Source of the DNA: Promethearchaeota archaeon
GTDB taxonomy: Archaea; Asgardarchaeota; Lokiarchaeia; Sigyniarchaeales; SOKP01
Length of the DNA: 25,987 nt
Reading direction: 5' to 3'
NCBI GenBank assembly: GCA_016839705.1
Contig: JAEOTR010000054.1
Span: 1 to 25,987 of the forward strand
Shown here: piece after piece, positions 2,156 to 18,911 of the stretch
How positions within the stretch are numbered: position 1 is the first letter of the stretch
Layout of the letters: every line of letters starts with the position of its first letter
Notes under the pieces: generated by a model
The model's database searches: none
What the model was told of the DNA's origin: nothing
Seen by the model: only the letters and a program-made list of their open reading frames with translations
Program-made: the position numbers and the translations under genes

Positions 2156-2701
2156 TTACTCTTTCAATTCGGAACCGCAATATTCACAAATAGTCTGATT
2201 AGGGTCTGAAGCTTGTTTTCCACAATATTTACATTCGACGTATCTCTCTTTTTTAACAATTTGCGGAGTAGTTGCATTCGTCTTTTCTGAAGCTAAAGAG
2301 AAATATTTATTAAAACTGGCTTTCACTCCAGCACTATGGGTTCTAATAACTATATTGTGGAAACCAGGGATAAGATTTGGTCTATTAGGGACGATTAATA
2401 CTAATTTATCACCAAGCTTTAAAGATTTATCATAGATTTCTAAAATATTTCGATTAAGATATAATGTTTCATTCATTTTCACATCGTAATCAAAAGGATA
2501 AATACTGGCATCATAAACAACAACATCATTGACTATGATAATTAAATCTTCTAGATATTGTTTTAATGTTTGATTTTGCATTGTCGGAGGTAATCCAAAT
2601 TCTAAGGAATCTCCCAAAATTGAAACATGTACCATACGTTTTGCAATTAAATTAGGTATTCTTTTAACTCTTTCTTTAATAGTCTCAAAAAATTTGGGCA
2701 T
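2156..2701 (-). CDS. Hypothetical protein with C-terminal zinc ribbon
   Basis: 181-aa ORF ending in CKYCG...CEYCG. Starts 24 bp after the kinase stop on the same strand. Confidence 0.75.
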   Translation of the reverse strand: MPKFFETIKERVKRIPNLIAKRMVHVSILGDSLEFGLPPTMQNQTLKQYLEDLIIIVNDVVVYDASIYPFDYDVKMNETLYLNRNILEIYDKSLKLGDKLVLIVPNRPNLIPGFHNIVIRTHSAGVKASFNKYFSLASEKTNATTPQIVKKERYVECKYCGKQASDPNQTICEYCGSELKE

Positions 2702-2725: not shown

Positions 2726-3637
2726 TTAAAATTTTGCTTCTTCCTCTAATTTTAATATCAATTTGAAAGTGCTTCCCTTCCCTAATTCACTTTCAACGAC
2801 AATTTCCCCGCCTAATAGAGTAGCTAACTTCTTTGAGATATAAAGACCTAGACCCGTTCCTTCCTGATATATCCCTGGTCTGATAATCCGACTAAAAGGT
2901 TTGAACAATTTTACCATATCTTCTTTTTTTATACCTGAGCCCGTATCTTTAACTGAAATTTCAACATTCCTGTTTGATTTTTGAATTTTTAAAGCTATTT
3001 CACCTTCTTCGGTAAATTTTATTGCGTTTCCAATTAAATTTGCTAATATTTGGTTTATCCTTTTTTTATCATTATAAATTGTAAGACTTCTTGGAATATT
3101 AATAAGTAATTCAAGTCCTTTCTTTTCTGCGCCTATAGTAAAAGTTTCCTTCATTATTTTTATCTCTTCAACAAGATTGTAATTATCTTTTTTTATATCT
3201 AACATGTTCGCTTCAATTTTATTTACATCAATTACATCATCAATCAATTCATGTAATTGGTTAGCGCTATTAAGAATAATCTTAAGCTGTTTTTCTTGTT
3301 CGTCATTTATTTCACCTACTCTTCCTTTCAGTATCATCCTCGTAAAACCTATTATTGAAGTCAATGGTGTTCTCAATTCATGACTCATACTCGCGAGAAA
3401 TATACTTTTTAAACTATCTAACTCCTTTAATGCACTTATCCGTTTCAAAAAAACCCATGTAGAAATAAGAGCAATCAATAATACAATAATATAAAATCCA
3501 AATATAACAGAAAAAATCAACCATTGGTCGGTACTTATTTCTCCAAAAAATAATGGGAAATATGGATAAATGGCTAAAACTATTCCAGCGATTATTAATG
3601 AAAAAAGAACAATCTCTCTCTTAGATAATCTCATCAT
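2726..3637 (-). CDS. Membrane sensor histidine kinase (2 TM helices + HisKA + HATPase_c)
   Basis: H-box FLASMSHELRTPL, N-box NLIGNAIKFT, G1 DTGSGI, F-box LFKPF, G2 GTGLGL. Two N-terminal hydrophobic segments. Confidence 0.95.
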   Translation of the reverse strand: MMRLSKREIVLFSLIIAGIVLAIYPYFPLFFGEISTDQWLIFSVIFGFYIIVLLIALISTWVFLKRISALKELDSLKSIFLASMSHELRTPLTSIIGFTRMILKGRVGEINDEQEKQLKIILNSANQLHELIDDVIDVNKIEANMLDIKKDNYNLVEEIKIMKETFTIGAEKKGLELLINIPRSLTIYNDKKRINQILANLIGNAIKFTEEGEIALKIQKSNRNVEISVKDTGSGIKKEDMVKLFKPFSRIIRPGIYQEGTGLGLYISKKLATLLGGEIVVESELGKGSTFKLILKLEEEAKF

Positions 3638-3733
3638 GAATCCTCGTTTTAAATTAAATTCAACAATATTTATTTCAAGAATGACATTACATTTAAATTT
3701 AATAAAACTATTAATTTCAATTACGGATAAAAC

Positions 3734-4618
3734 ATGAAACCTTTAATATTAATAGTTGAGGATAATCCAAACATCTTAAACTATTTAAAAACTACCTTAG
3801 AGTTTAATGAAGCGGAAGTTGTTACAGCAGAAAATGGAATAGACGGATTAAAAGTTCTTTCAGAGCAAAAAGATTACCCCGATATCATCATCAGTGATAT
3901 TCTAATGCCAGAGATGGATGGATACGAATTTTTCAATGAAGTGTCTAATAATCCTGCCCTTTGTCATATACCATTCATCTTTTTATCAGCATTAGATTCT
4001 GTTGAGGAAATACGAATGGGAAAGATGCTTGGAGCAGACGCTTATATTACTAAACCTATTAATGAAGATGATTTCTTAGCAACCGTTTTTGGTAAAATCA
4101 AACGTAATTTACAAAATAAGCTAATTAATAAAAGAATCAATGAGTTTTTATCTTCAAATGTAGTTGAAACAAATTATATTTCTGAGCAGTACAAGGATCT
4201 GATTATTTTAATTGAAGTACATTGGGATGATATAGAAGGTCCAAAAGTTGTAAATCGTTTCCCTCAAGATATAGAAGTTGATTTTTCACTCAGCAAAATC
4301 GGTGAACAGCTTTGGGATGGTATAAAAACTATGTATGGTCAAGACTATTTAGCAGAAGCAGAAGGAATTTTGATAAATGTAAAAAAATTTAAAGTTATGG
4401 CTTATGCATTTTTTGATTTTTATCCTGATGCTTCTTATCGAGGTGGCCAGAAGGATTATATGTTTTCACTTATTGCACCCAGAATTACCTATTTTCAATC
4501 TTTAAAAATAAAGCAAATTTTTGTTGAAATGTCTTCTAGATATAAAGAAAAAAGGGAATGGGATGCAAAATTATTTTGGAATAGGTTTACCGATATCCTT
4601 ACTAATCCAACAATTTAG
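3734..4618 (+). CDS. Response regulator: REC domain fused to a putative longin/uDENN-like output domain
   Basis: REC residues ED9-10, phosphoacceptor D55 (DILMPEMDG), S85 and K107-P are intact. The C-terminal ~140 aa carries HWDDIEGPKVV and DASYRGGQKDYMFSLIAP, which resemble uDENN/longin signatures. The REC call is secure; the longin call is an inference. Confidence 0.85.
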   Translation: MKPLILIVEDNPNILNYLKTTLEFNEAEVVTAENGIDGLKVLSEQKDYPDIIISDILMPEMDGYEFFNEVSNNPALCHIPFIFLSALDSVEEIRMGKMLGADAYITKPINEDDFLATVFGKIKRNLQNKLINKRINEFLSSNVVETNYISEQYKDLIILIEVHWDDIEGPKVVNRFPQDIEVDFSLSKIGEQLWDGIKTMYGQDYLAEAEGILINVKKFKVMAYAFFDFYPDASYRGGQKDYMFSLIAPRITYFQSLKIKQIFVEMSSRYKEKREWDAKLFWNRFTDILTNPTI

Positions 4619-5195
4619 CCAGTTGTAAAACTTCCTTACTGAATGCTGTTTTGATGCTGTTTAAATCAAAGATTGTGGTATCATATGACATAAATGATGT
4701 ATCATTATTCTGCATAAAAGGTTCAATTTTTTCCAAAAATATTTCTTTTAGGTTTCTTGTGCTTGGATTATAATCAGGATCCATTTTATGAAAAAGTAAC
4801 ACTATTCTTGCATCGGGACTGTATCTTTTTATTAAATTAAAAACACCCATGAAATACATAGTCGAAATAGCAAGCCTATAATAATCTTGAATATCTACTA
4901 CATAATAACAAAACGAAATCTCTTTAAAATATGATTCAGGGTTCGCTAAGTAATCATTACGATATACTTCCTGTCCACCAAGATCCCAAACCATAATTTT
5001 TCCCTGAAAAAGAGATCTTCTTTCTACTCCCTTTGTTGGATACATATCAGGGGGTTTTCTGAGGGTTACTTCTGTTTTCTGTTTCAATAGATCCAGAATC
5101 GAAGTTTTACCTGCATTTTCCAAACCTAAAATTACAAGTTTAATTTTTTGTTCTTGATTTTTCAAGTCACTCATTAAAGATTTCGACTCCTCCAT
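4602..5195 (-). CDS. Small GTPase, Rag/Gtr1-like with Arf-like P-loop
   Basis: G1 GLENAGKT, G2 PT, G3 WDLGGQ, G4 HKMD (SPDARIVLLFHKMD), G5-like TTIFD. Overlaps the response regulator 3' end by 17 bp. Confidence 0.9.
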   Translation of the reverse strand: MEESKSLMSDLKNQEQKIKLVILGLENAGKTSILDLLKQKTEVTLRKPPDMYPTKGVERRSLFQGKIMVWDLGGQEVYRNDYLANPESYFKEISFCYYVVDIQDYYRLAISTMYFMGVFNLIKRYSPDARIVLLFHKMDPDYNPSTRNLKEIFLEKIEPFMQNNDTSFMSYDTTIFDLNSIKTAFSKEVLQLAKLLD

Positions 5196-5402: not shown

Positions 5403-7382
5403 ATGAAAATAACTATGAAATCTAAATATAAAAGTTTAACCGGTTTAATTTTTATAGTATTGAATACCTCGATCTTATTAGGATTAACTTTCTCATCAAA
5501 TGAGATACATATTGATAAGTCATATGAAAAATATGATTTTACAGTAGAACCGATTACTTCAAATTATGAAGAATATATTAAAGGGAATTTTTCTGATTAT
5601 GAATGTTCAAACTATACTCTTTCGGTCTTTTTAAATGAAAATACTTCTAGTGTGGTAGGAAATTTAACTGCTGATTATTATAATGATGATCCTGTAAATT
5701 TCACACAGATACCTTTCCATATTTACCCTTCTGGGATGCAATATAATACGAGACCTGGGGATATTGATATATTAAATGTAACTACATCAGAAGATCCTAA
5801 TCAAGAATTAGAATTCGAAGTCCTTTCGGATATTCAGCTAATGTGGGTAAACTTAACTAGCGAATTAGAACCTGGGAACCGTACTTCTTTTATCATATCT
5901 TTTAATACGACTCTAACTGACGGGGGAATAGATCGAGCAAGTGATCATGGTTGGGATCATAATAATTCGCGTATATTTAAATTTGGGAGTGCTTATCCAA
6001 TGCCATGTGTATATGATGAATATGACGGATGGAATATAGATCCCTATCTTTCAATTGGTGATCCGTTCTATTTTGATATGGCCTATTATGATCTAATTAT
6101 TAATGTTCCTAATAGCATGACTGTTGCAGCAACAGGGGAATTGGTAGAAAAAATAACAATAGGGAATAGAACAATTAATCACTATAATCCTCGTCTTCCA
6201 GTTCGGGAGGTTACATTTTCAGCATCTCGTTACTTTGAGGTTGAGTCCTACTTCTCCGCTGATGCTAACGTCACAGTTTCTCTCTATTATCTTAATAAAT
6301 CATCCTGGTTATGGCATAATTTTGCTGTAGACGTCGTAGGAAATGCTGGCAGTCTATATTATGTAGCATTTGGAAATTATACATATCCCACGCTTAATAT
6401 AGTTCAAGAGTATACGATGTTTGGGGGGATGGAATATCCATGCCAAGTATATATATCTGAAGCTGCAGACAGGCATTCTGATCCGTGGTGGTATTTGGAG
6501 ACCATCATTGCTCACGAAGTTGCTCATCAATGGTTTTATAATCTCGTTGGTGTAGATGAAGTTGATTGGGGCTTTTTAGATGAAGGTGTTGTGTGTTGGG
6601 TTACTGATTGGTATAAAGATGTGTTTCACCCAGATTGGAATATTTTCGAACCATATTGGGGGCTATCTCGTCTAAGGCATTATTCATTGGACTACGGTTT
6701 ACCCAACAAAATCAATCAATCTGTTTATGAGTGTATTGATAGTGGTTCTAATTACTGGTATATTGCCTATACAAAAGCACCAACGATTCTTGAAAAATTA
6801 CGTACTATTATAGGTCTTGATAATTTTATTTATGGCTTAAGATATTTTACCCATGAGAATTTTTTCGAAATCGCACAATTAATAGATTTACAGCAAGCAT
6901 TTGAAACAATCAGCGGAGAAACTCTTGATTGGTTCTTTCTACCATGGTTTAATGATCCTTATCTTCCCAAGTATAACTTTACAAGTGTATTATATAATAC
7001 CCAGAGTAAAACTGTTAATATTACTATTGAAGATGTCAATGAAAATTTAAATCCCTATAGCTATTCGCAGCAAATTCCCATAACCATTTATAGCAGTGGT
7101 TCAACATTGGAATTCTCTGAATTTAAATGGATCAATGGTACAACTTCTTTAATAATACCTATTCAAAAAAAACCTGTACGCGTAGTACTAAATTATACTG
7201 ATAACGTTCTTGTTCAATTTTCAGACCATGATTTGAATTATTTGGAAACTACAGATATTATTGTGATTAATGGGCAGCAACCAAACATCCCAAGTTTTAA
7301 TGTTATAATTATCCTTCTTGCTTTTAGTACCTTGGGGATAATTTTTATGACAAAGAAGTCTAAATATCAAATAAATAATTAA
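5403..7382 (+). CDS. Secreted, membrane-anchored M1-family zinc aminopeptidase with Loki-CTERM-like tail
   Basis: GGMEY exopeptidase motif and HEVAH-x18-E zinc motif. N-terminal signal/TM segment. C-terminal IPSF + hydrophobic helix + KKSK. Confidence 0.9.
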   Translation: MKITMKSKYKSLTGLIFIVLNTSILLGLTFSSNEIHIDKSYEKYDFTVEPITSNYEEYIKGNFSDYECSNYTLSVFLNENTSSVVGNLTADYYNDDPVNFTQIPFHIYPSGMQYNTRPGDIDILNVTTSEDPNQELEFEVLSDIQLMWVNLTSELEPGNRTSFIISFNTTLTDGGIDRASDHGWDHNNSRIFKFGSAYPMPCVYDEYDGWNIDPYLSIGDPFYFDMAYYDLIINVPNSMTVAATGELVEKITIGNRTINHYNPRLPVREVTFSASRYFEVESYFSADANVTVSLYYLNKSSWLWHNFAVDVVGNAGSLYYVAFGNYTYPTLNIVQEYTMFGGMEYPCQVYISEAADRHSDPWWYLETIIAHEVAHQWFYNLVGVDEVDWGFLDEGVVCWVTDWYKDVFHPDWNIFEPYWGLSRLRHYSLDYGLPNKINQSVYECIDSGSNYWYIAYTKAPTILEKLRTIIGLDNFIYGLRYFTHENFFEIAQLIDLQQAFETISGETLDWFFLPWFNDPYLPKYNFTSVLYNTQSKTVNITIEDVNENLNPYSYSQQIPITIYSSGSTLEFSEFKWINGTTSLIIPIQKKPVRVVLNYTDNVLVQFSDHDLNYLETTDIIVINGQQPNIPSFNVIIILLAFSTLGIIFMTKKSKYQINN

Positions 7383-8842
7383 AATCTATTATTATTTTTA
7401 CTTATTTTTTTTCCAATTTCTAATACCGAATTAACAAGCACCTCAAAATCTTCTTTTACAGACCTGTGATTTACTATTGCTACACGTATAGAAAAATTTC
7501 CATTTATCATAGCATTTGACGGGACTGCTATTCCTTTCTCTTGTAATTGAAACAAAATTTCTTCATTTAATTTATTGAGTGCATTTATATCAATCGATCC
7601 ATCATTATATCTAAAATTTACGATATTGATTTCTGTAGGGGCAAGGATTTCTAATTTTTTCTCATTTTCTATTAATTTTGTAAGATATCTGGCTTGTTGA
7701 ATGTTTTGTTCAATAAGTTTCCCTAACTTCTTAATACCTTGTTCCTTTATCGTCATCCAGACCTTTAATGCTCTGAATCCTCTTGATAGTTGAGGTCCAT
7801 AGTCAGAAAATCGAATTTTACTACTACCCGTTCCTCTTTTTAGATGACCTGTATAATCTCCAATAAAATTAAATGCTTCGGAATGAAATTTTCTATTCTT
7901 AACAAGTACGCACCCTACATCATAATTTATATACATCCATTTATGAAAATCAAAAGCAATACTATCTGCTTTTTCTATACCATCTACAATGTTTTTTGAA
8001 GTAGGGGAAAGCTTACACCATATAGAAAAGGCACCATCAATATGAAACCATATATCGAATTCCCTAGCAATCTCAGCCAAAGTATTTAAATCATCAACTG
8101 CTCCAGTGTTTACTGTACCGGCATTTCCAATAATGCATATAGGTTGACATCCAGCTTTTAAATCTGCTTCTATTGTTTCTCGAAGCATGTCTAAATTTAT
8201 CTTAAATTGTTTATTTACGGCAATTTTTTTTAGTGAATTAAGTCCTAATCCTAATAGTTGGATTGCCTTATCGATTGAACCATGCATCTCAGTTGATCCA
8301 TAGAATAAGAGATTTTTTTTACTAGCTTGTATACCATGCTTAATAATATCATAATTTGCTTTGGTATTGCGTGCAACAGTTAATCCAATAAGATTTGCTA
8401 TAGAAGCACCGGATACAAGCAAACCAGATGCACTATTCTCGTAACCAAGCAGTTCTTTGGTCCATTCTAACACTTGTGTTTCAACATAATTAGCTATCTG
8501 TTCTTCTCCTGCTACATTCGTGTTCATTGTAGCAGTTAATATCTCTGCTAGTATTCCAAATGGTGTTCCAGATCCCACTACCCATCCCCAAAAACGAGGG
8601 TGAATATTTCCTAAAGGATAGGGTAGAATATTCTCTTTAAATTCCTGATATATACTCTCCCTATCTTGAGTTTTGATTGGAATAGGCATTTTGAATTTAA
8701 ATTTTACTTCATTTGGTATTTGCTGCCATACGGGTTGTTTTCTAATGCTCTTGAGATGCTCTAACATTTCATCAAGCATCTTATGTCCTAAAGTCTTTAT
8801 ATCTTCCCAATCTTCAGGATCAAGGGTTAATTCGGGTGTCAT
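7379..8842 (-). CDS. Group II PLP-dependent amino acid decarboxylase (aromatic-L-amino-acid/glutamate decarboxylase family)
   Basis: HPRFWGWV, AGTVNTGAVDDL, WFHIDGAF, DFHKW (PLP lysine), QLSRGFRALKVW. Confidence 0.92.
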   Translation of the reverse strand: MTPELTLDPEDWEDIKTLGHKMLDEMLEHLKSIRKQPVWQQIPNEVKFKFKMPIPIKTQDRESIYQEFKENILPYPLGNIHPRFWGWVVGSGTPFGILAEILTATMNTNVAGEEQIANYVETQVLEWTKELLGYENSASGLLVSGASIANLIGLTVARNTKANYDIIKHGIQASKKNLLFYGSTEMHGSIDKAIQLLGLGLNSLKKIAVNKQFKINLDMLRETIEADLKAGCQPICIIGNAGTVNTGAVDDLNTLAEIAREFDIWFHIDGAFSIWCKLSPTSKNIVDGIEKADSIAFDFHKWMYINYDVGCVLVKNRKFHSEAFNFIGDYTGHLKRGTGSSKIRFSDYGPQLSRGFRALKVWMTIKEQGIKKLGKLIEQNIQQARYLTKLIENEKKLEILAPTEINIVNFRYNDGSIDINALNKLNEEILFQLQEKGIAVPSNAMINGNFSIRVAIVNHRSVKEDFEVLVNSVLEIGKKISKNNNRF

Positions 8843-9076
8843 ACAGAAAAAAAAATTTATTAGTAAAAAAATATATCGATTCAGTCAAATTTTCATATGT
8901 AAGATTTGCTTAATATGGCAAATCCAATACAATAGAACTGTAAGCATTACATAATGTTTATATTTATAATATCTTACTAGATAAAAAAAGTGAAATTAAT
9001 ATTCAAGACCAGAGTAAATCTAAAATATAATTTAACTACAGCTCTTAAACCATACCAAGAGAAATATCTGAACAAG

Positions 9077-10024
9077 ATGAAAAACAAGAAAAAATCAAAG
9101 AGTAAAAAACCTAGAACTACTAGTGAATTTCAAGGAAGAATACAAGAGAATAGTATTTTTTCAAAATTAGACAACCTTGATAGTATCAGAAAGGAAGAAG
9201 GCTCTCTAGTGGAGGAGAAATTGAAAAGTGGACTATTAAAAAGCGAACAAGCAGAAAAAGAAGAAAACCTTGAGATTAAAAAGCTTAAAGTAATCGAAAT
9301 TAACAAAGAAATAGAAGATCTTCAGAAAATCAAAAATAAGTACCAAGCAGAAGAGAATTTTGAGAAAGCTATTAAAACTTCCAAAAAAATAATAGTAAAA
9401 GCTTTTTCCAACAACTTAAAATCAGTTGTTATAGAAGAGAATAAATTTATTGAAGTAACTCGAAAGAAATTAATACAAGAATCTGAAAAACCGGATGTAA
9501 AAAAAGAAGAATACATTAAGGAGATTGCAGAAGATGAATCTAAAGGTGAGGAAATTCAAAATAAAGAGCTACTTTTCAAAGTAAAAGCAACAGAAATTCA
9601 AGAAAAAAACCAATTTGAAGAGAAAAAACAAAGCATAAAGACAGCAAAACAAGAATTTGAATTAGAGAAACATAAATTCGAAGAAGAAAGAAAAGCTTTT
9701 AACTGGGAAAAAGAAATGATGGAAGAATTAAAAAAATTTGAAAGAGATAAAGTTGAAGAAGACATTGAGAAGAACTTAACACAGAAAAATGGAGAAAAAA
9801 TTAAAGAAGAAAGACAGGATCTTGAAGATGAGAAGTTAAAATTCAAAGAAGAAAAAGACAAGTTTGAACAGGAAAAATTACGATTTGAAGAAAAAGAAGA
9901 AAAATTAAAACAGGATAAAATGAGATTAGAAGAAGAAAAAGAGGCATTTAAATGGGAAAAGGAAATGTTTGAGGAAATTAAAAAACATGAAAAAGAAAAA
10001 AACGACGATTTTAAGGAATCATAG
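9077..10024 (+). CDS. Lys/Glu-rich coiled-coil protein of unknown function
   Basis: Long purine-rich ORF with heptad-spaced Phe/Leu and an internal duplication. The track start is GTG 8990; in-frame ATG 9077 looks more plausible, but the start is uncertain. Confidence 0.75.
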   Translation: MKNKKKSKSKKPRTTSEFQGRIQENSIFSKLDNLDSIRKEEGSLVEEKLKSGLLKSEQAEKEENLEIKKLKVIEINKEIEDLQKIKNKYQAEENFEKAIKTSKKIIVKAFSNNLKSVVIEENKFIEVTRKKLIQESEKPDVKKEEYIKEIAEDESKGEEIQNKELLFKVKATEIQEKNQFEEKKQSIKTAKQEFELEKHKFEEERKAFNWEKEMMEELKKFERDKVEEDIEKNLTQKNGEKIKEERQDLEDEKLKFKEEKDKFEQEKLRFEEKEEKLKQDKMRLEEEKEAFKWEKEMFEEIKKHEKEKNDDFKES

Positions 10025-14062: not shown

Positions 14063-14569
14063 ATGGAAATCATGAATCGAGAATTAATTGATCTTAATGA
14101 GCGTAAATTCCCAGAAAATGTTTGCTTTAAACCAATTGGTATGATTCATACCCCATTTAAATCACTCAAGGGAATTCCTATTCAATCAGCAATTTCAAAT
14201 ATGCAAGGAAAGTTAGAAATTTTTTCTGAATATAAGGCTGGTTTGAAAGATCTTTCCGAATTTTCTCATCTCTATTGTTTATTTTTTTTTGATATGGTAA
14301 AACAACCTGTCCCACTTCAATCTAAACCATTTTTAGATAATGACAAAAAAGGTGTATTTGCCATACGCACGCCATTTCGTCCTAATCCTATAGGCCTTTC
14401 AATTTTAGAGATAATCGAAATTAGAGACAATATGATTCACGTCAGGAATGTTGATATGTTAGATAAAACCCCGATATTAGATTTAAAACCTTACGTCTCC
14501 AGATTTGATAATATTAAATCAAATAAAATCGGTTGGTTGAAAGGAAAGATTCAGAAAAAACTTAGCTAG
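14063..14569 (+). CDS. tsaA: tRNA m6t6A37 methyltransferase TrmO/TsaA family
   Basis: FKPIGMIHTPF, GLKDLSEFSH, GVFAIRTPFRPNPIGLS, DMLDKTPILDLKPY. Confidence 0.88.
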   Translation: MEIMNRELIDLNERKFPENVCFKPIGMIHTPFKSLKGIPIQSAISNMQGKLEIFSEYKAGLKDLSEFSHLYCLFFFDMVKQPVPLQSKPFLDNDKKGVFAIRTPFRPNPIGLSILEIIEIRDNMIHVRNVDMLDKTPILDLKPYVSRFDNIKSNKIGWLKGKIQKKLS

Positions 14570-15950
14570 AAGCTTTTTGGATTAATTTTTCGTTCTTCTC
14601 TTTTCGAAGTCTTTTTGCTTGAATAGCTATAGTCTCAAGGAGTCTACGTTGGTTTGTTGATATCCAGGGTCCTTCACAATCAATAGCAGCGTACGGAATG
14701 TCACTTTTATTAGCTAGGGGGCGAATGATAGCTTGTGAATTCATTGCAGGTTGACAGTTAAAAGTTCCTAAATTAACTAGACCATCATAAATCCCTTCTT
14801 TTATCGAATGTAAGAATCTACCCGTTATAATTGGGGTTTCACTAAGACTATTGGAAGAAACATACTTATTCCCCTCTTCAAAAAGAGCAACAAAATCGAT
14901 AAATGGATCAAATAATAATCCTGATTTCCCGATGATTCTCCTAAAAATTTTACATTGAGAATTTAGGAAGTTTAAAGCACTTTTATTTCTCCTTGTTCTT
15001 TGAAATTCTTTTTGTTCATTTCCTTCTAATTCAGAAACACCTAACAATTTTTCATTAAATTGATCTTTTGGAGTTAAATATCCCTTTTTGAATCCAAATC
15101 TTATGGTGCTTTCTGCTAAAATCATACTCATCGTCTCAATAATATCTACAACTTTCACAATAATTCCTTTTTCAAGAAAAAAATCTTCTAGTGGGTAATG
15201 ATCAAACATTAAATTTAGTCCGCCAAAAATTAACACTTTAGGGATTTCTTCAATACTAGCTTTAAGAGGTATTTTTGCCACCTCTTTTGCCCATTTAACA
15301 AGACCAGTATTCAACGTCTTCTTTCCATCTTTTACACTATCGATAAATTCACTCGTTAAGTATTCAAATCTCTCCAAAGCATTAATTCTATTCTCTGCAA
15401 CACAATGTAAAGCGTTTCTTGCTTCTATAAGATATTGACCTACAATAAAATTAATGTTCTCCCAAGCTAACATATCGCGATTTAATCCTAGATAACGGTT
15501 AGTATATTTAGGAAATGCGCAAAAAATGGCATTTTTTACATTTAATCTCCTTGAAAAAGTATCCCAAAGAACGGGCCATGCACCATTCTGACATGGACCA
15601 TGATTATCTATTGGAGTACGATATATCGTTATTTCATCTTCTTTTTTGTATTCTTTAATATCTTTTAAGACTGCACCTGCTATTGCGACACTCGCAAGGC
15701 ATTCTCTTCCAGAACAAATTCGTTTAGCATATTGCAAAATAGAAGCATCAGTTTCTCCGCTTACCCTAATGTTTCGATTATACTTTTTGAATAAATTTAT
15801 AACTAGTCTTCTTCCATATGAGTTACGAGGTTCTGGATCAACGTATACTATCCTAGAGTCTTCAAAATCGACTCTCTGGCCGTTACTGTCAATAATATGA
15901 TTAAGATCATCTGAAAAGCGAGCCCTTCTTACTGATTCTATCTCTGTCAT
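14562..15950 (-). CDS. Dehydratase-like partner subunit of the upstream multidomain CoA activase
   Basis: CSGRECL, GPCQNGAW, GTFNCQP and AIDCEG...RLLETIAIQA. Starts 3 bp after the activase stop. Confidence 0.75.
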   Translation of the reverse strand: MTEIESVRRARFSDDLNHIIDSNGQRVDFEDSRIVYVDPEPRNSYGRRLVINLFKKYNRNIRVSGETDASILQYAKRICSGRECLASVAIAGAVLKDIKEYKKEDEITIYRTPIDNHGPCQNGAWPVLWDTFSRRLNVKNAIFCAFPKYTNRYLGLNRDMLAWENINFIVGQYLIEARNALHCVAENRINALERFEYLTSEFIDSVKDGKKTLNTGLVKWAKEVAKIPLKASIEEIPKVLIFGGLNLMFDHYPLEDFFLEKGIIVKVVDIIETMSMILAESTIRFGFKKGYLTPKDQFNEKLLGVSELEGNEQKEFQRTRRNKSALNFLNSQCKIFRRIIGKSGLLFDPFIDFVALFEEGNKYVSSNSLSETPIITGRFLHSIKEGIYDGLVNLGTFNCQPAMNSQAIIRPLANKSDIPYAAIDCEGPWISTNQRRLLETIAIQAKRLRKEKNEKLIQKASS

Positions 15951-15953
15951 TTC

Positions 15954-18911
15954 TTAAACAACCACACTTTGAGTTAATGATTTCATAATTTTTATATCTT
16001 TTTTCAGATGACGCTCTTCTATAATATCCAAAAATGCCCCCACTCTTGTCTCAAATCCAGCGTGGGCGGTATGAGAATCTATTTCGAGATAACAAAACGT
16101 GTGTCCTTCAAGTTGTTCCCGGTAATGATGATACATCGTACCATCAGGTCCACAAGAAAAGCACGACACAAAACATATAAAGAGGTTAGGATATTTCTTA
16201 ATATATTTTATAGCATTATCAATCTCTTGAGTGAATCTCCATACATTTCTTGATGGAACATCCTCCTCCTCTATATATGGTAATAGATCAGAAGGAATAG
16301 CATTATAACCTCTACTCACAATCTTTCGAGGTAGAGCAATGTTTACATCTGGAGGATAAACAACATAAGGTCTTCCAGCAATAATCACTGATGGCTTTTT
16401 TAATAATTCTTTCAGTTTTCTTCGCCCAAATTCAAAATATATTGCTCTGAACATTTTATAATGAGATAGGGCTACTAATCCAGCATTAATACCCACTTTA
16501 TTTTCTAATCCTAATAATGAAGCAACTCTGCCAAATTCTTTTATTGTAGTTTCAAGAAGATCTTCTGAGAGGCCAATATGTGGTGATATTATTTTTTCAC
16601 TTTCATTCTCAAAAGCTGCTCGGATAATGTCTGGAATAGTTGTTGTAGATGGACAAGTATAACCATGAATATAACCCTTTGGAATTTCCATTTCAATTAC
16701 GTGGGGTAAGAAGATATAATCAACATTTTGGCTAATTAGATCATGTACAGCCCCATGAACTAACTCACATGGATAACATATAGGAGCTTTTGTTTTTGTA
16801 TTGCCTGTTTTTGAAGGATTTGATAACACTACATTGTACCCCAACTCATTGATAAATTTTGCATATAAAGGATAGTAAATGTGAGAAGTAAGTGACATGG
16901 GTATACCAATCGTGCCAAGAGGATGCTTTACAGCACGAGCCCCAAAATCATTGATCATCATGTTATTCCTGATTTCTATAAGATCTTGACCGTCCTTTAT
17001 TTTTGTTCCTTTCTGACGCAATAATTTATATTTAGAACATAACCCTCCAAAAGGATATGTATGTCCTCTTATCAAAATCCTTTGAATTTCACAATTGTTA
17101 TCACATGATTTACATCTAAACGTATTTTTAATCTCAATTTCTCCTTTCGTAAGATTTTGTAATGAAAACTCTTCCTTTGATATTTCATTACGTTGTAATA
17201 AATCCCTCGTCATAAGTGCAGTACCTACAGCCCCCATAAGTTCGGGATGGGTAGGAACTACAACCTTTCGCTGTGAACGAGCGGCAATAGCTAAGGCTAC
17301 AGATCTATTAAGAGCAACTCCTCCAAGGAAGAGGAGATTCTTGCCGATTTGACGAGGTCCAACAATACGTGAAATATAATTATCAGCAATCGAATAAACA
17401 AGACCTGCCACAACATCTTCTACTTTAGCACCTTGCTGAAGAGCATTCCTCAAGTCAGTATTAATAAAAGCTGCACATCGTTCACCAAATGCAATTGGTT
17501 GAGTACTTTCTGTTGCAATAGAACTTATTTCTTCTACTTTGATACCCATATCTACTGATGCAGATTCTTCAAGAAAGCTACCAGTTCCCGCAGAGCAACC
17601 CTCATTCATTGCATAATCAATCGGCACTCCTTTTAAAAATGAAATGAATTTTGAATCCTGCCCTCCTATTTCAAAAACGGTATCAACATCAGGAAGTTCT
17701 TCCGTTGCTGATCTTGCATGTGCTAAAATTTCATTTAGGCTTCTGCAGTTATCTAAATAAACTGAAACCATCTCTCTTGCTGAGCCTGTTACCCCACACT
17801 GGATTAATTTTATAGAATTATCTCCCACTTGCTCTACAAGTTCGTTTATGCATTGTTTCGTTGCTAAAATGGGGTTACCTAATGTTCTTAAATACACACT
17901 TGCTCCTATTGAATTATCAGAAACATTAAATAATACGGCTTTAGTAGTAGTGGAACCCGCATCTACACCAAGTATGTATTTTTCCCCAGGTTTTAACGCT
18001 ATCTTATTTTCTGCATTAACCCGATAATCTAGAAGATGCTCTGCTTTTTCTAGTGCCTCATGAGTTTGAAATTCAATTTTCGATGATTTAAACCAATTAT
18101 CATATAGTTGATTAGAATCTTGTAGTTCAGATGCAAACAATGATGCTCCAAAAACTTCGAGATAAGGGCTTTCAGGTAATACTTTTATTTCCGAATCTTT
18201 GAGAAAGCTAGATAGATTTTTGATAAAAATCTTATTTAAAGCAACTCCACCAGATATGACGATCAATTGAGTAGGCCATTGAGCGGCATCTATCATTTCG
18301 CTTACTTTTCTCGCTAAATCATAAATTAATGTCTTTGCAATATCTGATGGAGTACATTCTCCTTTATTCAATCTGTGCGTTGCATCTGATTTACAATGGA
18401 CTGAACATCGTGTTGCCAATTGAGTAAAGTTTCCCTTCGCGCTCGTTTCTATTCCTTCTTCAATAGATAATCCCATTCTTTGAAGTTGTTGAACAATAAA
18501 TTCCCCCGTACCCGCAGCACACTTTGAAGTAGAAATTATGTTTTTAATGATACCATTTTTCATCGGGTAAACACTAAAAGTTTCTCCCCCAAGTGAAAGC
18601 AAAATGTCAGGTTTAAGATCATAATAAGACAGAGCTTTTTCAAGACATTCAATTTCTGATATATAAGGTAAATTAAGAAAACTACTCGTGGCTTGCCCAG
18701 TTATTACTATATTTGAATTTTTATCATCTTTATAGCGATTAAATATTTGTTTTATCTTTTCTTTAGGAGAACCCTCATGACGTATAACTTCACTGAGTAT
18801 CTCACCATTATGTGTTCTACGAACCCACTTTACAGAAACCGCACCAATTTCCAATCCCTCGAAATAACGAATCTTACTTGGTTTAATTGCTTGAAGACTC
18901 TTATTTAGCAC
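15954..18911 (-). CDS. Multidomain CoA-substrate activase (two ASKHA ATPase domains + DUF2229-like domain)
   Basis: Domain 1: CAAGTGEF, RCSVHC. Domain 2: GVDAGSTTTK, EIGGQDSK, CSAGTGSF, ERCAAF. Then CKSCDNNC..GGLC, followed by CYPCE, YTCP, CFSCGPD and EIDSHTAHAGFETRVGAFLD. GGTGA lies 6 nt before the GTG start. Confidence 0.92.
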   Translation of the reverse strand: MLNKSLQAIKPSKIRYFEGLEIGAVSVKWVRRTHNGEILSEVIRHEGSPKEKIKQIFNRYKDDKNSNIVITGQATSSFLNLPYISEIECLEKALSYYDLKPDILLSLGGETFSVYPMKNGIIKNIISTSKCAAGTGEFIVQQLQRMGLSIEEGIETSAKGNFTQLATRCSVHCKSDATHRLNKGECTPSDIAKTLIYDLARKVSEMIDAAQWPTQLIVISGGVALNKIFIKNLSSFLKDSEIKVLPESPYLEVFGASLFASELQDSNQLYDNWFKSSKIEFQTHEALEKAEHLLDYRVNAENKIALKPGEKYILGVDAGSTTTKAVLFNVSDNSIGASVYLRTLGNPILATKQCINELVEQVGDNSIKLIQCGVTGSAREMVSVYLDNCRSLNEILAHARSATEELPDVDTVFEIGGQDSKFISFLKGVPIDYAMNEGCSAGTGSFLEESASVDMGIKVEEISSIATESTQPIAFGERCAAFINTDLRNALQQGAKVEDVVAGLVYSIADNYISRIVGPRQIGKNLLFLGGVALNRSVALAIAARSQRKVVVPTHPELMGAVGTALMTRDLLQRNEISKEEFSLQNLTKGEIEIKNTFRCKSCDNNCEIQRILIRGHTYPFGGLCSKYKLLRQKGTKIKDGQDLIEIRNNMMINDFGARAVKHPLGTIGIPMSLTSHIYYPLYAKFINELGYNVVLSNPSKTGNTKTKAPICYPCELVHGAVHDLISQNVDYIFLPHVIEMEIPKGYIHGYTCPSTTTIPDIIRAAFENESEKIISPHIGLSEDLLETTIKEFGRVASLLGLENKVGINAGLVALSHYKMFRAIYFEFGRRKLKELLKKPSVIIAGRPYVVYPPDVNIALPRKIVSRGYNAIPSDLLPYIEEEDVPSRNVWRFTQEIDNAIKYIKKYPNLFICFVSCFSCGPDGTMYHHYREQLEGHTFCYLEIDSHTAHAGFETRVGAFLDIIEERHLKKDIKIMKSLTQSVVV

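Follow-up and report, generated by a model that had tools for sequence, protein, structure and literature searches.

A histidine kinase, receiver-longin and Rag-like GTPase cassette conserved in Lokiarchaeia and its possible role as a kinase-gated GTPase switch

This study concerns three adjoining genes in a Promethearchaeota archaeon of the class Lokiarchaeia, which encode a membrane histidine kinase, a response regulator with a longin output domain, and a stand-alone Rag-like small GTPase. The genes lie on contig JAEOTR010000054.1, whose 25,987 nucleotides are referred to here as the window (contig C43 of a 3.36 Mb host genome). The three genes very probably act together. An earlier note, made from the letters of the DNA, had suggested that His-Asp phosphotransfer controls a longin-type regulator of the neighbouring GTPase. 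That interpretation is supported; a GTPase-activating protein (GAP) activity of the longin and its control by phosphorylation are inferred. Our fullest proposal is tentative. In Lokiarchaeia a self-contained His-Asp phosphorelay may gate a homodimeric arginine-finger longin GAP of a dedicated bare Rag-like GTPase. Such a system would serve as a living, symmetric model for what existed before gene duplication gave rise to FLCN-FNIP, NPRL2-NPRL3 and SMCR8-C9orf72. It would also be the first pairing of an Asgard Rag/Arf-like GTPase with its native GAP.

Conservation of the three-gene cassette

Gene neighbourhoods were read at 141 related loci, 110 of them with complete flanks on both sides, and genes were called linked when they lay within two genes of each other. 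At the 110 complete loci the regulator was linked to a kinase in 89 cases and to a small GTPase in 89. Expectation for the GTPase was 11%, the share of random genes in the host genome with a GTPase within two genes. The earlier note had proposed a survey for conserved synteny of the three genes; 81/110 complete loci had both partners, and the arrangement was kept through rearrangement.

The commonest form, a GTPase-kinase-regulator operon behind an ArsR-type gene, was found at 62 loci. A divergent kinase with the regulator followed by the GTPase was found at ~11 loci. Further orders were a kinase-regulator pair with a convergent GTPase, an inverted GTPase before the kinase, and a GTPase directly before the regulator. 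The GTPase link is real and has been retained through at least five gene orders. At most orthologous loci the GTPase lies 20-181 bp downstream of the regulator and runs in the same direction, so co-transcription probably holds in relatives. The earlier note had stressed the convergent orientation of regulator and GTPase. This is true of the window, but the GTPase there nests among same-strand orthologs, and the convergent order is thus a local inversion (as also at L036 and L061). No strong direct repeat flanks the regulator or the GTPase; only weak AT-rich matches were seen.

GTPase trees were built from archaeal sequences only, using all GTPases of the host genome and 50 sampled linked ones. 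In these trees a Rag-like group contained two clades, with support of 1.0 and 0.996, that between them took in 49/50 of the linked GTPases. The same division into two groups is seen for the kinase, for the regulator and for the GTPase, and in the host genome each group is represented by one cassette, on C43 and C87. The second cassette is a paralogous four-gene operon of an ArsR-type regulator, a bare Rag-like GTPase, a MASE3-PAS kinase and a receiver-longin (C87 19379-23191; L001:7380-11191). Outside the two cassettes, no receiver gene of the host genome has a GTPase within two genes. In a mirror-tree comparison the identity correlation was 0.80 for longin and GTPase and 0.79 for receiver and GTPase. 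The former is no higher than the latter, so the values reflect shared history only and were not used as support.

The GTPase could be a passenger, its gene order inherited among close relatives with no functional tie. The host genome is dense in GTPases (90 of ~3050 genes), the orientation in the window is convergent, and the loci are kin dominated by two genera, so that the counts overstate independence. Because related genomes are not independent, we felt that the variety of gene orders weighs more than the number of loci. A passenger is nevertheless highly improbable given linkage of 81% versus 11% and a link that persists in two separate clades despite inversions and moves. In addition, the linked GTPases form a narrow subfamily, other receivers are without such a neighbour, and an interface with the regulator is predicted.

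The output domain of the regulator is a longin

The response regulator (3734..4618, plus strand) has 294 residues that form a receiver, a long helical stem and a longin, as judged from Pfam and from an AlphaFold2 model with a predicted local distance difference test score (pLDDT) of 89. Residues 135-294 gave no Pfam match and no helix-turn-helix, and a sequence search of solved structures with the output domain gave no match. Atlas feature scores for this domain were all <0.9 and were treated as leads only; one cluster was 19% NPR2 at a low 0.75. An NPR2 family search of the host genome found no match, and the controls likewise found none, which makes that search uninformative.

The longin was identified from predicted structure. 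Foldseek with the full-length regulator model returned receivers only, so the output domain was folded separately. When folded alone from 115 relatives it gave pLDDT 91 and a predicted template modelling score (pTM) of 0.87. Residues 158-290 (4205..4603, plus strand) form a longin of the folliculin / C9orf72-SMCR8 / NPRL2 type, and the order of secondary structure in the model is that of a longin: two strands, a helix, three strands and two helices. The best structural match was a folliculin complex chain, 6nzd_H (VIA-align Z 13.3, root mean square deviation 2.3, 130 residues aligned). It was followed by a Lokiarchaeal longin dimer, 8yqg (Z 13.1), Lst4 (12.9) and C9orf72-SMCR8 (11.7 and 11.0). 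Longins of guanine nucleotide exchange factors (GEFs) ranked lower, with DENND1 at Z 10.6 and TRAPP at 9.9. Foldseek of the longin model placed GATOR1 and FLCN-FNIP2 chains on top, with E 3e-5 to a GATOR1 chain.

The earlier note had described a regulator with an intact phosphoacceptor and no DNA-binding domain, and a longin/uDENN output. The first description holds: the receiver matches at E 1e-22 with D55 in place, and there is no helix-turn-helix. A DNA-binding output was rejected, as the domain folds as a longin. Of the second, the longin stands by predicted structure (Z 13.3) but the DENN context does not, for the protein stops after the longin and has no cDENN/dDENN.

Conservation was counted over 136 receiver-longin proteins from related loci. 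Mean identity of the longin domain is ~32%, while three elements are nearly invariant. W164-D165 and G169-P170 (4223..4243, plus strand) lie on the beta1-beta2 hairpin, in the predicted GTPase interface; W164 is kept in 136/136 proteins, D165 in 125/136, G169 in 136/136 and P170 in 135/136. The third element is Arg236 (4439..4441, plus strand) in the beta4-beta5 loop, a candidate arginine finger by its conservation, loop position and place in the predicted interface. It is kept in 135/136 relatives, among them 100/100 that are linked to a GTPase. A GP motif plus an arginine finger mark GAP-type longins, and PMC12290439 reports the GP motif as specific to them. The arginine finger of longin GAPs lies between strands 4 and 5 (bioRxiv 10.64898/2026.01.05.697756), and C9orf72 requires its W33-D34 to be active (bioRxiv 10.1101/2021.04.13.439632). 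WD and R236 stand in one polypeptide, which thus unites the C9orf72 element for holding the GTPase with the catalytic one of SMCR8/FLCN.

The longin domain is present in 132/161 genomes of the class Lokiarchaeia. Among the other Asgard lineages a minority carry it, and some of these carriers have the NCBI labels Heimdallarchaeota and Hodarchaeota. Longin fusions in P0034, P0036, L060, P0076, P0046 and P0050 involve Rab-like/Arf-like GTPases, RsbRD_N and DUF1638. Fusions of this kind are possible self-inactivating GTPases or may bring in other sensory inputs.

The GTPase and its modelled complex with the longin

The GTPase gene (4602..5195, minus strand) codes for 197 residues and matches Pfam Arf (E 2.5e-18) and Gtr1_RagA (E 9.5e-18) with nearly equal scores. 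Its start is probably Met8 (5174), where the nearest ortholog starts, which gives 190 residues. The 3' end overlaps that of the convergent regulator gene by 17 bp (4602-4618), and the overlap and the Rag/Arf-like assignment given in the earlier note are both confirmed. The P-loop lies at 5103-5126, switch-II Gln75 at 4971-4973 and the G4 motif HKMD at 4779-4790 (all minus strand). G1-G4 are intact, and the G4 motif is of the Rag type. The protein ends after the G domain without a C-terminal roadblock and so is Rag-like rather than a Rag. Of the host GTPases, twelve show the Rag-type G4 strand. Only the GTPases of the two cassettes are bare among them, the remaining ten being fused to further domains.

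MglA carries its own catalytic Arg at the position before the switch-I Thr. The cassette GTPases have Pro, not Arg, at this position, and Gln75 is present in all 99 linked GTPases. There is thus no built-in finger of the MglA type, and a finger supplied in trans fits. No lipid-anchor motif was seen: N-terminal extensions are short and polar, Gly2 is present in 2/99, and there is no terminal Cys. Many Asgard Arfs likewise are without an N-terminal amphipathic helix or Gly2 anchor (PMC11914678). Among solved structures the closest are 8yl2 and 8zla/9m28, the last of which is titled a Rag-like GTPase of Lokiarchaeota; a literature search found no publication for these three PDB entries.

A complex of two longins, GTP, Mg and the GTPase was modelled. 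The pass mark is reached by 58/80 solved complexes and by 2/110 mismatched pairs, counts that are only rough for the present job. The complex scored 0.78, and the best of three controls scored 0.32; the interface that the earlier note had asked about is therefore predicted. At least 81% of contacts were shared between runs, and partner pLDDT was at least 84. Predicted contacts join longin residues 164-171 and 236-238 to GTPase residues 26-27, 50-56 and 75-78. In the model the WD/GP hairpins of both longins and R236 lie on the P-loop, switch I and switch II including Q75, an interface like that of the C9orf72-SMCR8-ARF1 complex (bioRxiv 10.1101/2021.04.13.439632). The longin probably binds the GTPase directly.

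GAP, exchange factor or broader regulator

R236 is a candidate equivalent of the eukaryotic finger on the basis of fold, loop position and motif, and R236-dependent GAP activity is predicted with somewhat better than even confidence. Several points weigh against it. A Pfam scan of the output domain across 115 members found no longin/DENN family and no NPR2, folliculin or C9orf72 match; identity to solved longins is ~10%; and the equivalence of R236 is drawn from loop position and motif. FLCN-FNIP-Rag and C9orf72-SMCR8-ARF1 structures are solved, so the pass of the complex may show likeness rather than binding. A contact between R236 and GTP is not among the contacts reported from the model. 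Close cousins of the true partner also pass, so the model says little on substrate specificity. Furthermore, both GEF and GAP action are possible for roadblock/longin dimers (PMC13408092).

The longin might instead bind the GTPase as an exchange factor, or as an effector or scaffold, without acting as an arginine-finger GAP; in the effector form, the GTP state may tune the receiver or kinase. GEFs and platforms are common among longin/roadblock dimers (PMC10933270; PMC13408092), DENND1 and TRAPP longins are also among the fold matches, and a complex model speaks of contact, not catalysis. Against these roles, R236 is near-invariant and sits in the finger loop, the GP motif is described as GAP-type-specific in PMC12290439, and GAP-type longins match at Z 13.3-11.0 as compared with 10.6 or less for the GEF type. 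We regard an exchange factor or effector as unlikely.

Alternatively, the longin could be a GAP that is broad or differently aimed, acting on several Rag/Arf/Rab-like GTPases or in a heterodimer with another longin, with the neighbouring GTPase as one member of a co-regulated pathway. About 1 in 5 complete loci have no GTPase nearby, yet R236 is kept; it is present in 19/19 paralogs without a GTPase neighbour. One of these loci is in the host genome, where a third receiver-longin (C85 79513-80475; L002:7514-8476) has an intact Asp and Arg and no kinase or GTPase within two genes. Natural GTPase-longin fusions (P0076, P0034, P0036, L060) contain Rab- or Arf-like GTPases, and outside Lokiarchaeia the nearby GTPase is also often Rab-like or long Rag-like. 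The receiver-longins of the non-Lokiarchaeial loci L186, L188, L189 and L191 lie in two-component clusters by Rab-like (217-240 residues) and long Rag-like (414-462 residues) GTPases. Tandem receiver-longin pairs exist (L143, L165, L186, L187), and all three eukaryotic longin GAPs are heterodimeric (bioRxiv 10.1101/2021.04.13.439632; 10.64898/2026.01.05.697756). These facts point away from a dedicated partner. In favour of one, a single genome holds two paralogous cassettes, each with its own kinase, regulator and GTPase clade; the WD and Arg elements are on one chain; and the homodimer model passed. A broad GAP is, in our estimate, a fairly remote prospect.

The receiver and the adjacent kinase

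The receiver domain (residues 5-118; 3746..4087, plus strand) has the phosphoacceptor Asp55 (3896-3898, plus strand) and an intact pocket comprising E9/D10, D55, S85 and K107. D55 is kept in 130/136 relatives. The alpha4-beta5-alpha5 face is a common phosphorylation-dependent dimer surface of receivers. Here each of its residues R94, G96, K97, L99, G100, D102, D103, Y104, D113, A116, G120 and R124 is 95-100% conserved. In the AlphaFold2 model an extended helix of 31 residues (residues 111-141; 4064..4156, plus strand) forms the joint between receiver and longin, and the spacing from K107 to W164 is 57-58 residues in 113/136 relatives. The conserved dimer face, the 31-residue extension of helix 5 and the fixed spacing would suit receivers that pair and thereby fix how two longins are arranged. 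Placement of the receiver relative to the longin in the full-length model is of low certainty (pTM 0.59).

The kinase gene (2726..3637, minus strand; 303 residues) was recognized by Pfam, by its H, N, G1, F and G2 boxes and by hydropathy. HisKA spans residues 77-143 (E 5e-19) and HATPase_c residues 190-298 (E 6e-28). All boxes are present, and the H box motif HELRTP contains His86 (3380..3382, minus strand; read from the codon), the predicted autophosphorylation site. Hydropathy predicts two membrane helices (~residues 9-27 and 40-63) without a separate sensor domain. Most kinase orthologs have nine membrane helices, and the operon-type kinase has a MASE3 + PAS sensor. The kinase core is 62-68% identical to divergent kinases of orthologous cassettes and ~33% identical to those of paralogous operons. 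That the gene is a broken kinase was rejected: the two-helix form was seen again in L053 and L037 at 60-68% identity. The kinase and regulator genes diverge from an AT-rich gap of 96 bp (3638..3733), which is presumed to be a two-way promoter; a sigma-70 promoter scan gave chance-level results with a model that is ill-suited to archaea. A complete membrane kinase divergent from the regulator across this gap, as the earlier note had it, was found with H86, all boxes and the coordinates in agreement.

Directly after the kinase gene, 2156-2701 (minus strand) encodes a 181-residue protein with a C-terminal zinc ribbon. It was rejected as a cassette member, as a homolog was found in 0/140 related loci; no homolog was found elsewhere in the host genome.

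Receiver decay was found at 6/15 complete loci without a kinase nearby versus 0/107 with a kinase, and reflects about two independent events. Together with the adjacency and the fusions, it hints indirectly that the kinase is cognate to the receiver. The decayed receivers, in which the Asp or Lys is lost, have no kinase neighbour (L045, L046, L056-L059, L050), and most keep the GTPase and the Arg. These loci would be natural constitutive versions. They keep R236 and mostly the GTPase, which indicates that kinase input can be lost. In one subclade the longin and GTPase are retained and both the kinase and a working receiver are gone, so phosphorylation is dispensable there, a point against the gating model. 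This subclade and the uncertain receiver-longin placement would fit a real longin-GTPase pair in which D55 phosphorylation affects location or partner binding, or in which the receiver is a mere dimerisation device. In contrast, D55 is present in 108/108 kinase-linked loci, and linker length and dimer face are tightly conserved. A receiver that does not gate the longin therefore seems improbable.

Proposed mechanism

The membrane kinase would autophosphorylate on H86 and hand the phosphate to D55 of the adjoining regulator. We infer this transfer because the motifs are intact, the adjacency is conserved and natural kinase-receiver-longin fusions exist (P0068, P0070, L171). Phosphorylation would then alter pairing of the regulator via the alpha4-beta5-alpha5 face and the fixed-length helix, setting the arrangement of a longin homodimer; activation is somewhat more likely than inhibition. 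A homodimer is presumed since one gene encodes the longin. In the model the longin dimer cups switch I/II of the GTP-bound stand-alone Rag-like GTPase. The WD/GP hairpin of one subunit would hold the GTPase, and R236 of the other subunit would act as the arginine finger with Gln75 of the GTPase. The outcome would be a symmetric, kinase-gated counterpart of the heterodimeric eukaryotic longin GAPs. For this whole chain, a phosphorylation-gated homodimeric longin GAP including control by D55, we consider the case about evenly balanced.

Neighbouring genes

A secreted, C-terminally anchored M1-family metallopeptidase (5403-7382, plus strand) is divergent from the GTPase; the stop ends of this gene and of a pyridoxal-dependent decarboxylase gene (7379-8842, minus strand) overlap. 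Genes for coenzyme A-substrate enzyme activases (DUF2229 / BcrAD-type) occur twice in the window, at 3-1956 and 15954-18911 (both minus strand). Two long open reading frames are without a Pfam match, one of 344 residues at 8990-10024 (plus strand) and one of 462 residues at 14562-15950 (minus strand). The earlier note had also invoked nutrient sensing and TORC1, and nothing at the locus points to either.

Comparison with known systems

Asgard GTPases are hard to pair with GAPs or GEFs by gene order (PMC10933270), and PMC11914678 describes the regulators of Asgard Arf-like GTPases as unidentified. The cassette names a kinase, a regulator and a GTPase, and so offers a testable partner for GP-motif longins and for Asgard GTPases. 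Its proteins are small, soluble save for the kinase anchor, and found in most Lokiarchaeial genomes, with H86, D55, W164/D165, R236 and Q75 as single-residue targets. If the mechanism is correct, GAP activity would be an output for which the literature searched gave no precedent among response regulators, and the cassette would show a possible wiring of a Rag/longin switch to outside signals before TOR kinase.

The earlier note overstated the novelty of the architecture, as related fusions and conservons with a kinase and a GTPase have been reported. Liu et al. (bioRxiv 10.1101/2020.10.19.343400; Nature 2021) describe, in the accessible portion of their text, Asgard NPRL2-like longins fused to two-component domains, and surmise that Asgard growth control is centred on two-component systems with eukaryote-like regulators. 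The regulator studied here belongs to the same fusion class. That portion does not contain a conserved kinase-regulator-GTPase cassette, a partner GTPase, an arginine finger or a GAP mechanism. PMC12290439, in its available part, raises the possibility that Asgard longins with a GP motif act as GAPs and asks about ArfR or Rag GTPases as partners; those longins have the same motifs, and that part gives no receiver fusion, kinase or gene-neighbour partner. Our literature search, with many subscription papers outside its reach, found no description of the cassette, of a fixed GTPase partner or of a receiver-gated GAP.

In its longin fold, WD/GP/Arg elements and modelled two-longin cup, the regulator is like FLCN-FNIP (acting on RagC/D), GATOR1 NPRL2-NPRL3 (RagA/B) and C9orf72-SMCR8 (Arf, Rab8/11). 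Unlike these, the cassette longin is encoded by a single gene, lacks DENN, is fused to a receiver and is ~10% identical, with a GAP activity that is only predicted here; the cassette GTPase is a bare G domain with no roadblock partner or lipid anchor, unlike their substrates. The cassette is not a member of the eukaryotic longin GAP complexes, as it has no DENN and a single longin gene. The receiver-longin is likely a forerunner of the eukaryotic Rag/Arf off-switches.

Two bacterial systems are alike in wiring. In the Frz - RomR/RomX - MglA/MglB module of Myxococcus, receiver proteins act on a small-GTPase switch and the GAP is a roadblock homodimer, but the connection is indirect, with receiver and GAP on different polypeptides (PMC13408092). 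Actinobacterial conservons (CvnA-D, MfpA-E) also combine a sensor histidine kinase, a roadblock-type regulator and a small GTPase in a conserved set. They differ in having an MglB-type roadblock, a CvnC-type gene and an MglA-like GTPase, no response regulator, and a kinase target that is not established (PMC13343842). In the Asgard cassette, unlike the conservons, the His-Asp pair has a direct connection to a longin with its own arginine.

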